Source: Obrimoposthia wandeli (lineage: Eukaryota). Taken from it: 64,000 nucleotides of DNA. The stretch is taken from NCBI GenBank assembly GCA_977020255.1, contig CDROCS010001696.1:1116001-1180000 (forward strand). Direction: 5' to 3'. Shown piece after piece: positions 26,401 to 32,400 of the stretch; positions within the stretch are counted from its first letter, which is position 1, and each line of letters begins with the position of its first letter. The position numbers and the translations under genes were made by a program. The notes below the pieces were generated by a model. The model searched no databases. It was not told the DNA's origin and worked only from the letters and a program-made list of their open reading frames with translations.

Positions 26401-29400
26401 CTCATACACTGATTTTCTGTATTAATCGACAAAAAAAGAGAGAAAAACTCAAATAAGAGTTTTCTCATTTAATTTTCTGACGAATGATGTATTAATCGTT
26501 GCTATTTATAATGATCATAAAAGATAGGCTTCCTTGCTCAACACAACTTACTTTAAAAAATCAACTTCTCTGTGCAATTTCTGGGCTTGAGTGAAATCGT
26601 TATTCTGTAAATAATTAGTAGACAATGCACTACAAGTTTCCAATCGAGGGTTTGATGTCGACACATATTTTCCAGGGCTCTAAATTTTATTTAAGCATAT
26701 TTAAAATTTATATTACCCCTGGATTGTTTCTTCGATTTTCTAAAATAAATTTAATAAATATATTATTAAAATATTTTTTTTGTTTAATTACCATGGGTTC
26801 TTAAGGTAAGGCCAGTTTTAAAATTGGAATATTTAACATTAAATTAATTTCACTAGAAATGGGGGTTTATTGGAATTTTGTCATTAACCCTTAATTGTGG
26901 TTTAGTAAGATTGTATTTTTTTTCGTAATTGTGTACCATTGAAGCTCGGGAGATTTTGCACTATTCGTGACATTTAGAATCAGTAATCATTGCCTCATGA
27001 AAGTCAGTTCGTCGGTTAATTGCAAATCTGATGAGTATGGACCACTGTTGATCTACCAAAAAGTGATCAGTCTCCTGTTTCAGAAGATTTGATTGCTTTG
27101 GGCAATTTACGAAACAAAGTTATGCCAACCCCAAAACGAACTTAAATTGAAGATTATCGAAGCATGTGACTTTATTTCTCGGGCAATAATTTGTCGTGCA
27201 ACTGAGTGCAAACTGAAATTATCATTGGAATCATTATAAAATATGGATTTTATCAAATTACATAATATTTTTGTTGATCTGAAAAAGCGAAGAAAATAGT
27301 CAACACATAAATATGTTTGTTAAAATACATAGAAGTCTTCAATAGCCGACTATTATTACTAATTACGCTTAGTAAAAGCCGTTACATTGATTCGCATACA
27401 TTTTGGATGTCCTGTAATGTTTTATTTTTAATAATCTCAATCCAAACATATCAATAATTGATGATCCTAAACTCAAAATGAAATGTAAAAATTACGGATA
27501 AAATGTTTTTTAAATTGAAAAAAATGGAAATTTTAAAAGTTGTATTATTTCTACTGAACTTTAAACAATGAATCAATCATTAAGTCAGTGTATTCCTAAC
27601 TTTATGTTAATACGCCTCCCTCAAAGAAAGATCCAATCTTGGGGCCTCTCACTTTATTTCATAAAAGAATAGACACTTTTTTTTAATTATAAAATACTTA
27701 TTAATCCAAAAATTAAGAAAAAAACATGTTCGATGGAATAAAAACATTCAATACTTTTGACATTACTTGACAAAAATATACGTACATATTATTTATTTAT
27801 ATACGTTGTTATGAAACTTATATTTCTGATAAAACTTTCGCGCCTCCCCTTGCACTAGGCATTCTTCTCAGTTTGGATATCGCAGCATTAAGAATTCGCT
27901 ATTTCCCTAGATACAAAATATAATTTTAAATGATTAACAAACGACGCTCTCAACCATTAGGAGATTATGAATGAATCAAAATTTATTAAAAAGAATTAAA
28001 ATTTCAGTTATTAAAGAAATTCTAAACGAAGTCGAGATTTTTCTTCTCAATACTGTATATGGGTAACATTATATTTTGGATTGAAATAATATTCTTATTT
28101 AGTTAAACAGTTTAAAATAAATTACAACGGACTTTACCTTACGAACAAACGGTATATTTTCAAAATGCTTAAAAAGCATATTCGGTAAATCGAAAAATAT
28201 CTTTATCGGATATACAGGGATAGAAATTATTTGAAGACTTCACATATTCCTAATGACCATATATGAAAGGCTAGGACTAAGTTTTGACTTGAAGGTTTGA
28301 AAGTATGGTCATGACAACACATCTAAAAGGTTGTGATCGTCCATAAATGAAGGGGTCGGGCTAAAGACAAAATTAAGTTTAAAATATCAATGTTTAGTAC
28401 ATGGTTTGAATTATCTTTGGGAGTCAAATTCATCCATAAAGGTATGGTTAACCATAGATGAAGGGGTAAAAAAGTTGAAATTTCAAAGTTTTAAATACAT
28501 GGTTGTGATTGTCAAACTATTGTGCGTTTAATCATGTAAAAGATTTATGGTCGTCCACAAGTAAGGGTCAGATTTGGAACAAACATGATAATTTTATAAC
28601 ATGGTTGTATTTGTTTATCAAAATTGAGTTCAACCATAACCTTATGATCATGCATAAGTTAAGGAATCCTATAGTAATCAATCAATTATGCTATGTGAAA
28701 AATTGTACCGTGATCCGTTTGATTGCTGCTAGCATCTGTACTCCTATTATGGTCCACCAATGCTTAATTCTTGCTGGGATTCTTCTGTTGACAACGCTCC
28801 ATACCAAACCCCTATTGTCACAGAGCACAGTGTCGCCGATATCAAAGTAAGGCTCGTGCTTCCTGCAAGTAAATGTTTTGGAAATCCAGCTTGGCGGCCA
28901 TAATAACTCTTTTGTTAGGCTTAACTTGCGTGACCGCAATTGTAGTATTTGTGGCGTCTGAAGCCCAGAGTTGTCTTGATTTTTTGGGAGTCCATTTCCA
29001 TGTTGGTGCATACTTCCTAAGCGTAAAGAAGCATATTCTCCTGAGATCGGGGTTTACATAGTTTGCCACATATGGCCAGTGCAACACGTAATTGAGATAT
29101 TATATTGCATCATCGTCATACTGGTTGTTGTGAATGATCTCTGTAGCTGTTTGCCATTTAGTCTCAGAAAGCTTGATCTCCTGTTGCGCAATGTCGATCT
29201 GCATCCCGCAATATTTCAAATTTGCGATTGGAGTTAATTGTGATTTTTATGTGTTGACCTGTAGACCCCAGCCTTGTAGAAATGCTGCGATTTCTTTCCA
29301 AACTTGAGCTGAAGCTTCTGCAATAATAAGGATATCGTCTATGTGGACAAGGTCAATTTTCCATCTGGACTGCAATTGCTTGATAATCTGCGTAATTATC

Positions 29401-32400
29401 CATTGCAAGATTGCTGGACTCTGTCTGAGGCCCATTGGAAGCCTTGTCCTTCGTTCCAAATGTTTGTGAGGTGTCGAGTTTCAATTTGTTGAACAGATTT
29501 GGTATCTTCATAAAGAGCCTTGGAAAGTGTGGAGTGAGGTGTTTAAAATCCACAATAAGTCTCCTCAACTGCGAATTTGCCTTCGGGACCATGCGTACTT
29601 GCGAGCAGAAAGGACATTTTGTAGAACGCTCAATGATGTCTGCTTGTGCAAGCGCTTGTACACATGCGTTGATGTGTAGCTTTTCCTCTTGGTCAACAAT
29701 TTGTCTCTTGCGCTGATTGGAGGCTTTTACCGAGGCATATGGTGCATAGCCTTTTCTAGCCAACATACCCATTCTTCTATCCACGTCAACGTCACTGAAA
29801 TCATCAGGCATTATGAGAGTGGATTTTTTCACATAAATATTTGAATTTACGCAAAATTTTCATTAATTTATTTAAACTATTTTTTTAAAATGAAAATATC
29901 AATAAAAATTTATTGACATTAAAAATTTATTTTAAATATAAATAATTAAGCAAAGACTTTTAATAAACTCAAAATATTTACTATTTATGATAAATATTTA
30001 AATTTACTTAAAATTTTCATTAATTTATTTAAATATTATTTTTAAAACGTAAATATCAAACAAAATTTATTGACATCAAAAATTTATTTTAAATATAAAT
30101 AATTAAGCAAAGATTTTTAATAAACTCAAAATATTTACTCTTTATGATACATATTAAATTTATGCACAGTTTTAATTGTCACCATTTGTGTATTTCAACT
30201 AATTTATATTTTAACACAAACATATTTATTAAACTCTTGGTTACACATATTAAATATATATTAATTTTTAAATGACATACTTTTATATTGGTAATTTATA
30301 ACTTAAATCAATGACAAAAATATTATTATTTTAAATATTAAAGCAAATAAAAAAAAATAATAATCTAAAATAATTTACTAGCTATTTAATAATTAAATTT
30401 ATATTATCAATCAATGAAGATGATGTAACAATATGATGAAATTATAATAATTAAGATGTGAATGTTCACATTTACTTTCAAATATTGTTATTTTCATGAT
30501 ACAAAGATCAAAAATTCATTCACATATACACATACATTATTAAAAATCCTTGTCTCATTTGATAACATTCCTTAATTTAAATATTTAAAAATAATTAGAT
30601 AAATTTGAATTCTTTATTTTCAAATAACATGGTTATAAAAATATATTCATAAATATAATTTGAAAATTATCATTATTCGTTTCTTTTTTTAAATATTCGA
30701 AAATATATTTATATATACAAATATAGTAAATTAACTCACAAAACAATTTTATTCTCTGTGTATCGAAAATTGCAAATTTATTTCCAAAGACATGAAAATA
30801 ATAGTAAACAAACTGAAAGCTTTGTCAATAAATTATAATACAAAATCTTTAATCACATTGTTTAATAAAACAAATTGTTCAAACATATTAGATTATCATC
30901 TTAATACCTCAATATATTATTCAACTTTCTAAATAATTAAAAGTCTCAAGTGAATAAGAGTTAATAAGAGTTAGTGAGTATGGATTCAAATGATGCTAAG
31001 TGATAGCAAGAGTTTTTAAAAAAAATTAGCTAGTAAGGAGGCTCGAATATAAATGAAAACAAATTAAAGTTACAGAAATTGAGTGAGAGTGTAAGTAAGG
31101 AAGTTTATGATTCAATAATCAACGCAAAATAAATATTTAATTATTTAACTTTTATTATTAGTTGACAACATCAAATATTTCATAATACAAATATTCAATA
31201 TATTTCAACAGTATAAAAAATTATACGTTATTATTTATGTGTTTTTTGTCCAGTGATTTTATCTTAAAACAACAAAAAACATTTAAATTATAAAATAAAA
31301 CCCCTTGGGTATGTTGGCCGACAATAGATGGTCATGACCATACCTTCAAACCTTTCTGAGTCAAACCCTTATGGTGGCAAGTCACCCTTAAACATTTTGT
31401 GCGCACCCATCCTTCTACCTACTGTCCATCTTATTAAGCTGTGCGATAGCTTTTCCATAATTTAAAATTTACTGACATTTTTGGGGGTAAAGAAGTATTT
31501 TCTGGACAATATTTATGTCTCGCCTATCTCGCCTTGTTGACAGGTCCAAAGTTTCATTCACAAAAATAAATTATTACCGGAGATATTCTTGCACAAAGTG
31601 GGAATGACCGGGATTTCTACATTTCGACAATTAAAAATCGAAATTTCCGGCTCGCGCAACCACCGAACACAAACTACTGAAATTTGGGAAGCAAGTTGTG
31701 ATCGATGTCTGGCAACCACTTCCAAAGTTTCATTCACAAATATTGATTGCTTCCATAGAAATTCAAAGAAAGCTGTAGAAACTTTAATATATTCGTGTCA
31801 ACATAAAATTTACTCCGAAAAATTCAAAATGAGTGAGTTGACAAATAAATATTCGTTGGGACTTTTTCAGCTAAAGTTTACCAACTTTTTGTAGAATTAA
31901 TCATATAAACACATTTTAACGCATATATACATGTAGTATATGTCTGAAAACAGGCATGAAATATCTTAATTATTTAAGAAAAAAGTTAGTTATCTTAATT
32001 ATCAGTTGCAATCCGTGTCATTCATGTATCTTTTCGCATTTAATATCAATATATTTCTGAATGTTAGATTCTGATTTTTCCTTCAACCACGGAGGGTCGT
32101 CGTTTTCTCTTTTCCCCTGATATGACAAGTTATCCGACTTTTACTGTATATGGAAATTAATTTTGTCAGTTGTAACTTATTAAAGAGGATTTCTCAAACC
32201 ATTTTGACTGACCTAAGCATATTTGTAGATGAATCTTGTGACGCAGGACTATGTATGATGCAAACAAAACAGAGCTCAGTACAGTGTCCTCGCCTAAGTA
32301 AATAGATAATCCAAGATTGGAATTAGCAGCGGAACTAAGTCTGACACATGAATGAAAAAGACGGCATGACCGGGAGCTGTTGTCAGTCTGTCATCATCGT

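Follow-up and report, generated by a model that had tools for sequence, protein, structure and literature searches.

A dead fragment of a HEART-like retroelement in a Polinton remnant of Obrimoposthia wandeli, and the probable hepadnavirus-style copying of its family

The 64,000-nucleotide (nt) stretch of Obrimoposthia wandeli DNA considered here (NCBI GenBank assembly GCA_977020255.1, contig CDROCS010001696.1, positions 1,116,001 to 1,180,000 of the forward strand; hereafter the window) carries a reverse transcriptase-RNase H (RT-RNase H) fragment enclosed by Polinton-type terminal sequences. The reading that we consider probable is that this fragment is dead, lies in a non-autonomous Polinton remnant and derives from a HEART-like retroelement that is autonomous, lacks an integrase and likely copies itself in the manner of hepadnaviruses. 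The features on which this reading is built are given below in window coordinates.

28696-29832, minus strand: Pol of the HEART-like family, comprising RT and the greater part of RNase H, truncated, internally deleted and frameshifted, from homology to relatives
29250-29480, minus strand: RT motifs B to C (RVT_1, E=3.2e-8)
28696-29099, minus strand: connection region followed by RNase H of the hepadna type (SDAT, YLQE, CDN), ending before NPAD; PF00336 in open-frame relatives
28254-28704, plus strand: inner left terminal inverted repeat (TIR) and subterminal repeats of a non-autonomous Polinton-ended family, 85-88% identical to many genomic copies
29833-31299, plus strand: AT-rich interior of that non-autonomous family, from sibling copies; a 157-bp stretch is tandemly duplicated at 29833-30146
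31299-31423, minus strand: right terminus (AGTAGGTAG...) of the Polinton-ended unit, from family matches, with the inner TIR absent and GTCCAT as flank

A preliminary description, made from the sequence alone, had placed a decayed minus-strand RT-RNase H at 28691-29832, and this is borne out by the frameshifts, the span of homology and the RVT_1 domain match, as well as by the presence in the fragment of the RT motif strings that it quoted and of NIYLQE. The fragment is truncated at both ends and lacks the C-terminal NPAD motif, and RT motif A is absent at an internal gap of ~75-90 nt near 29473-29478. The same description had recognised no long terminal repeat (LTR) or other retroelement gene, and indeed no LTR, integrase or recombinase open reading frame (ORF) was found near the fragment. 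Its view of the catalytic motif HIDD as a decayed YIDD is contradicted by the wider family, as all 11 aligned open-frame copies have HIDD, and so do 47 of the 54 unique instances of the motif (the others being YIDD in 5, HIDN in 1 and DIDD in 1); HIDD is therefore native to the family.

The unit that surrounds the fragment (28254-31423) belongs to an abundant family of non-autonomous, Polinton-ended units composed of TIR and AT-rich interior, of which it is a decayed copy. Its left block (28254-28704) and right terminus (31299-31423) belong to one TIR family together with the Polinton end at 57474. At 57645-57795, upstream of a pPolB ORF, stand Polinton-type subterminal repeats that the left block resembles in direct orientation, and the right terminus is an inverted match to the terminus at 57526-57638 and ends in CTACCTACT, which upholds the inverted terminus of this family previously placed at 31285-31423. 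The Polinton block formerly drawn at 28255-28570 does hold real repeats, but it extends to ~28704, and the outer 150-230 nt of the TIR and the left terminus are gone. Genome searches returned 4707 first-look candidates for the left block, 1975 for the right terminus and 3439 for the AT-rich stretch, with 40 scored for each, and 20 stretches around good matches to the host unit formed a sibling set. Siblings bear AGTAGGTAG 150-350 nt further out than the left block of the window, and one of them (L113) is a complete ~4-kb unit with both termini and the 6-bp target site duplication (TSD) AATATG. Both Polinton traits, AG-type TIR termini and a 6-bp TSD, are thus seen in L113, whereas the window copy has the right terminus only and, its left terminus being lost, no TSD can be read there. 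An inversion of a single TIR was also considered and was dropped because TIR and interior in the siblings are oriented as in the window.

The RT was present in 0/20 sibling stretches, and in two empty-site siblings (L115 and L126) the sequences that flank the window RT lie 292-298 bp apart, so the RT fragment has replaced an interior piece of one copy, where it stands in for ~295 bp of the host unit. The preliminary description had proposed either that the RT was cargo of a Polinton-ended mobile unit or that it had entered a dead Polinton later. It is the second of these that the empty-site siblings uphold: the RT is not Polinton cargo, a conclusion that we hold with great confidence, and the window copy is a later RT insertion into an old Polinton remnant. 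Nor do other genomic copies of the element share the Polinton TIR family and 6-bp TSDs; they have termini of their own, no TSD and an association with Polintons at control level.

This association was assessed at 40 further loci, taken largely in rank order, against 39 control points on the same contigs 40 kb away, with a Polinton library drawn from the window, the first 20 loci and two siblings, so that distant families may be missed equally in both sets. Polinton sequence lay within 2 kb of 23/40 loci and 17/39 controls (p=0.26), Polinton core genes accompanied 14/40 and 14/39, respectively, and any Polinton match fell within 300 bp of 17/40 and 9/39 (p=0.09). With 17 control points within 2 kb of Polinton sequence and 14 accompanied by core genes, this genome is unusually rich in Polintons. 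A post hoc split speaks against an incidental link, as TIRs lay within 300 bp of 12/40 loci and 1/39 controls (p=0.0015); part of this excess, however, consists of Polinton termini adjoining elements that have been cut short (L133, L152). For a replication stated beforehand, 30 natural right ends were taken and five that had already been used and five in which the element continued were removed; among the 20 independent ends that were left, TIRs were found at 1/20 (6.1% expected) and core genes at 3/20 (16.5% expected). The post hoc TIR excess is therefore not replicated and in part reflects Polintons inserted into old element copies, though a mild TIR bias among older copies may exist.

That the element is cargo of Polintons, or inserts into them in a targeted manner, is on this basis very unlikely. 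It would agree with the TIR next to the window copy, with the position of L070, L076 and several older copies inside TIRs (the 12/40 against 1/39 above) and with the occurrence of L071, L079 and L084 among Polinton genes. Against these stand the siblings that lack the RT, the absence of overall enrichment where so many controls are themselves close to Polintons, and the independent replication. Moreover, the Polintons at L071 and L084 are 95-98% identical and carry 71%-identical elements at different sites, and the opposite order occurs too, with a Polinton terminus cutting an element. The Polinton link is incidental.

With the RT separated from its surroundings, its affinity becomes the central question, and the family very probably falls in the clade of HEART elements and hepadnaviruses. 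In the RT plus RNase H tree (41 rows) the element groups with the tick-HEART-like proteins P0011 and P0013 and with hepadnavirus-like genomes at 98/99, and DIRS elements stand apart at 100/98; a quick RT-only tree (86 rows, with 11 near-duplicate and four short rows omitted) joins the element, HEART-like proteins and hepadnaviruses with an SH-aLRT support of 95. Approximately unbiased (AU) tests on 22 rows rejected a grouping of the element with DIRS (p=0.008) and with Gypsy (p=0.002), and a grouping with hepadnaviruses alone was neither rejected (p=0.08) nor the best tree. The labels behind these rows are of several kinds: hepadnavirus rows are sixteen 3.0-3.4-kb IMG/VR contigs with YMDD, labelled from size and motif; DIRS rows are labelled from Dam and tyrosine recombinase (YR) domains on P0107 and some relatives; and P0011 and P0013 were matched by eye to supplementary rows of PMC12691608 for tick HEART, a source in whose RT alignments, as far as available, the HEART rows are seven tick rows. 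Two points count against the placement: a smaller RT-only tree (43 rows) supports the HEART and hepadnavirus clade at 89/88, and the trees were built without nackednaviruses, proto-nackednaviruses (PnNVs), insect HEART, Ngaro or caulimoviruses.

The earlier preference for a hepadna- or HEART-like rather than a DIRS origin is upheld by the trees, the AU tests and weak PF00336 matches (the hepadnaviral C-terminal domain) in 6/11 open copies at E<=1, of which the best has E=6e-5 and one copy exceeds the curated cut-off. A DIRS or Ngaro element that lost its tyrosine recombinase is highly improbable: a gag-like ORF1 that overlaps pol and leans weakly to Gag would suit it, but the AU test and the separate DIRS clade (Ngaro not being among the tree rows) oppose it, as do the absence of YR or methyltransferase from the copies and of inverted terminal repeats or split direct repeats. 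From its sequence we would assign the element to a new HEART-like lineage and not to the Blubervirales. Its RT clade lies outside DIRS and Ortervirales, its RNase H is of the hepadna type, it is endogenous and no integrase was found; the terminal protein (TP) domain in P, a criterion for Blubervirales, was not recovered (PF00242 in 0/11 copies; ~1% probability or less by hhalign). The best representatives are unnamed RT-RNase H proteins, mostly of 400-730 aa and many with PF00336. The search for representatives gave a large set of such proteins, with RT and hepadna-type RNase H (P0003-P0036, from ENA, JGI and Logan), several of them on contigs of 2.5-3.8 kb; they branch with HEART and hepadnaviruses and represent much undescribed HEART-like diversity.

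In the genome, the family is abundant and in part intact. A protein search gave 1657 candidates, of which 150 were scored, many lying in frames of 720-820 codons, and an exact terminal motif occurs 397 times (reversed control 0). Word-based protein searches largely failed to pick up the family, the subfamilies of which are ~70% identical, and scans of IMG/VR and metagenome DNA found no relative. Complete natural copies are ~2.75 kb long and encode, from an AUG, an ORF1 of ~175 aa with an Arg-rich tail that overlaps a ~740-codon Pol frame (RT-RNase H), the two AUGs being 7 nt apart; the RNase H C-terminus reads NPAD.P.R. Both ORF1 and Pol are under purifying selection. After removal of saturated pairs (12-51 pairs per region), the median dN/dS was 0.04 for RT, 0.06 for RNase H, 0.07 for ORF1 and 0.11 for Pol between the end of ORF1 and RT, and 1.0 for the Pol frame under ORF1. 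Pfam searches of 11 copies detected RT in addition to the PF00336 matches, and no integrase, tyrosine recombinase, methyltransferase or protease.

As to what lies upstream of RT, a TP or core ORF had been envisaged; complete copies do have an upstream ORF, but no core or TP homology was found for it. Comparison with core by hhalign gave 0.07%, with vertebrate cores as sole targets. The structural model of ORF1 had a predicted local distance difference test (pLDDT) score of 44 and its fold search gave no match, and its sequence features lean weakly to Gag/PNMA (0.75-0.80, where the lead level is 0.9). The structural model of Pol is reliable beyond roughly residue 110 (mean pLDDT 81). A fold search with it returned generic RT matches, in which the P protein of hepatitis B virus (HBV) ranked 14 and had, at 22%, the highest identity in the top 20, and a PDB sequence search gave Ty3, retroviral and caulimoviral RTs, one insignificant capsid match and nothing else.

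The ends of the element are well defined. Full-length left ends begin GCCAGTC, ~25-30 nt past TATATATAAG, exactly so in L066, L074, L076 and L084 and within a few nt in L070, L071, L078 and L079. Right ends lie ~30 nt further, at GATAA|T, so the units are terminally redundant (R, ~30 nt). Most copies are 5'-truncated to a variable extent, and inversions and head-to-tail concatemers are present; the seamless tandem junctions are compatible with circles or template jumps. The base after GATAA is T in 40/42 unique terminal ends against 6/13 internal or 5' copies (p=2.4e-4), and a run of at least six A follows GATAA in 1/42 terminal ends. At L285/L286, L073 and L079, GATAA stands at the end of the locus and not in the internal R of the same locus, and at several empty sites (for example those for L260, L285 and L158) the target does not supply GATAA. 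Empty-site homologs were available for 13/56 loci; their best matches all show deletions, of 10-20 nt in seven and 59-360 nt in six, a TSD was seen in 0/13, and short filler stretches occur at element junctions.

Other arrangements of the element were observed at individual loci. Long tandem arrays of 5'-truncated units (L080-L082, on C5233 and C2366) have a period of ~1.98 kb with an oligo-A junction and contain a higher-order repeat, 3.17 kb long, in which five truncated units are combined. Fold-back (inverted) structures occur at the element 3' end in L084 (4416-4614), L166 and L269.

For HBV, a 3-4-nt protein-linked primer is made on the 5' epsilon bulge and then moved to DR1* (PMC3748129, in part), and in-situ priming of the plus strand yields linear DNA that is end-joined at breaks, with the promoter separated from the ORFs (PMC5408681, in part). 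The ends of the element fit such a scheme, the left one being the likely RNA start and the right one a fixed site whose base is not copied from R, with deletions and no TSD. Copying would begin with a terminally redundant RNA transcribed from copies in tandem or circular form, in which an upstream promoter is restored, and the ORF1 and Pol AUGs would be read by leaky scanning. A short 5'-ATTA(TC) primer would be made by Pol on a GAUAAU in the leader and transferred to GAUAA in the 3' R as acceptor; priming of the plus strand would take place in situ, at the 5' end of the RNA, and yield linear DNA, which host end joining would insert at chromosome breaks with no site preference. In the least supported step, the primer would be protein-linked via a conserved ~105-aa region N-terminal to RT. 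From the sequence patterns, a leader-templated primer translocated to the 3' R seems moderately probable, and its protein linkage through the conserved N-terminal region of Pol is a tentative proposal, held at a little less than even confidence.

Several features of the RNA bear on this proposal. The leader, at 350-370 nt, contains 0-1 AUG where 5-7 would be expected, and a second GATAAT is found in it in 17/18 rows (three of these from one tandem); in L084, both the leader site and the R site read GTTAA. A stem-bulge-stem fold at the 3' end, upstream of the TATA box, is strongly favoured (z=-6.6), with six pairs showing double changes among 28 copies, counts that may be inflated by sequence relatedness. 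A number of results weigh against the proposed copying, however. In folding, the leader does not surpass shuffled sequences (z=+1.5). RNAalifold keeps its apical hairpin alone, the helix beside GAUAAU is weak (75% paired), and of the leader fold no more than the apical hairpin and the outer stems is upheld. The fold most like epsilon in shape lies at the 3' rather than the 5' end. A further 33 unique terminal ends stop earlier or differ and are without GATAA. On the protein side, PF00242 matched none of the 11 copies, nor anything in a genome search whose control was uninformative; hhalign against hepadnaviral TP aligned a T3-like stretch alone, at 0.2% probability and directly adjoining RT; no priming residue was identified in Pol; and the N-terminal 104 aa of the Pol model are mostly below pLDDT 50.

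Two other explanations share parts of the one that we prefer, so our degrees of confidence are not mutually exclusive. The first, which we consider unlikely, is an endogenized non-enveloped hepadna-related virus of PnNV type, a linear DNA by-product of which repeatedly entered the germline, with ORF1 as capsid and the copies mostly dead ends. The genome size and overlapping ORFs resemble those of nackednaviruses (PMC5604429, in part), the tail of ORF1 is Arg-rich, unit-length copies without an upstream promoter are like HBV double-stranded linear DNA (dslDNA) integrants (PMC5408681, in part), and the purifying selection between copies, the ~70% identity of subfamilies and the 2.5-3.8-kb contigs with related proteins would all suit a virus. 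Such a virus is opposed by the failure to find TP or core homology, by the weak lean of ORF1 to Gag/PNMA (below the lead level), by hundreds of copies that include tandems with a promoter, and by the absence of relatives from the IMG/VR and metagenome scans.

Equally unlikely in our view is end priming of the Penelope or retroplasmid kind, in which RT would start at the RNA 3' end via the 3' hairpin, de novo or primed by a break, template jumps would give rise to tandems and GATAAT would be the RNA end. It would account for the 5' truncations, inversions, partial tandems and multi-jump arrays, and it agrees with the 3' position of the strongest conserved fold and with the failure to detect TP. 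It does not sit well with a terminal GATAAT unlike the internal R of the same locus, with the excess of T at ends or with the rarity of A runs after GATAA (1/42), and RNase H is kept and the RT groups with hepadnaviruses. Hepadnavirus-style copying of a HEART-like retroelement thus remains the reading that we prefer. On its boldest form, which we put forward tentatively, the element could be a recently active link between retrotransposons and hepatitis B viruses with hundreds of germline copies, combining HBV-style translocation and end joining with a short N-terminal priming domain whose sequence is unrelated to hepadnaviral TP and a capsid that is Gag-like and not core-like.

Other Polinton features are present in the window. 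A short derivative at 20440-23918 has both termini, the 6-bp TSD AACAGC and a packaging-ATPase remnant, and a decayed Polinton of ~11.3 kb at 44608-55913 has ATPase, integrase and putative capsid-like ORFs in addition to accessory ORFs for BIR (47419-48018) and a dual-specificity phosphatase (49331-50188). A further Polinton end at 57474-61092 has 99-bp subterminal repeats followed by pPolB pieces, and 61480-62073 appears C-type-lectin-like by eye and has no Pfam match. Elsewhere in the genome, a unit 95-99.6% identical on eight contigs (L021-L036; C4931, C5677, C1848, C1167, C3567, C2957, C4730 and C5311) holds an old copy of the element into which a Polinton terminus cuts; its identity spans the whole 20 kb examined in five contigs, and it is either a segmental duplication or a giant mobile unit. 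Copies at L070 (88-4235), L072 (974-1555) and L083 (2-4024) lie beside RING-finger, phosphatase and membrane-protein ORFs, which may belong to another large viral-like element.

The new lineage makes the mobilization of HEART elements testable and, if the proposed copying is true, this would be the first time that a route of mobilization has been worked out for HEART-like elements. HEART retroelements were reportedly described by Gong and Han in 2018, with HEART1 and HEART2 as two published insect lineages. In the literature searched, neither the termini nor the mobilization of HEART elements is described, nor is any link between HEART and Polintons, though the original 2018 paper may describe structure. 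HEART elements have been proposed as hepadnavirus ancestors, and PnNVs as descendants of an invertebrate HEART element, with a redundancy of ~33 nt in RTPV (PMC12691608, in part); nackednavirus-type genomes encode C and P with TP (PMC11551314, PMC5604429, both in part). As recently as 2025, HEART elements were portrayed as enigmatic, with mobilization unresolved and few and often mutated sequences (PMC12440569, in part).

Among known systems, the host unit agrees with non-autonomous Polinton/Maverick derivatives in its AGTAG termini, 6-bp TSD (in the sibling) and subterminal repeats, and differs in its RT, a one-off insertion that its siblings lack. With HEART, the element shares an RT plus RNase H clade that includes P0011 and P0013, a hepadna-type RNase H, no integrase found and an endogenous state in an animal genome. 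It differs in forming a separate subclade, with ~24-25% column-wise identity to these two proteins (alignment A4), in having HIDD where tick rows have (Y/H)(I/L)DN, and in its hundreds of copies, many open frames, defined ends and ORF1. Likeness to PnNVs and nackednaviruses (PMC12691608, PMC11551314, PMC5604429, each in part) lies in a size of ~3 kb, a capsid-like ORF overlapping P, the lack of an envelope, a short TATA-to-end redundancy (~33 nt in RTPV and ~30 nt in the element) and stem-bulge-stem RNA folds. Unlike them, the element has no detectable TP, GLY or core motifs, its T3-like stretch directly adjoins RT, it has HIDD and not YMDD, and it is known from multicopy integrated copies; these viruses are absent from the tree. 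Since hundreds of copies have defined ends, many have open frames and RNA signals are present, it can be tested whether epsilon-style primer transfer predates TP, core and envelope. With hepadnavirus dslDNA integration (PMC5408681, in part) and epsilon-to-DR1* transfer (PMC3748129, in part), the element has in common ends at the likely RNA 5' start and at a fixed internal 3' site, a promoter separated from the ORFs, and insertion at breaks that is accompanied by deletions and leaves no TSD. It departs from hepadnaviruses in a redundancy of ~30 nt rather than 16 nt, and in that dslDNA integration, there a somatic dead end, is in the element apparently the main route of germline amplification.

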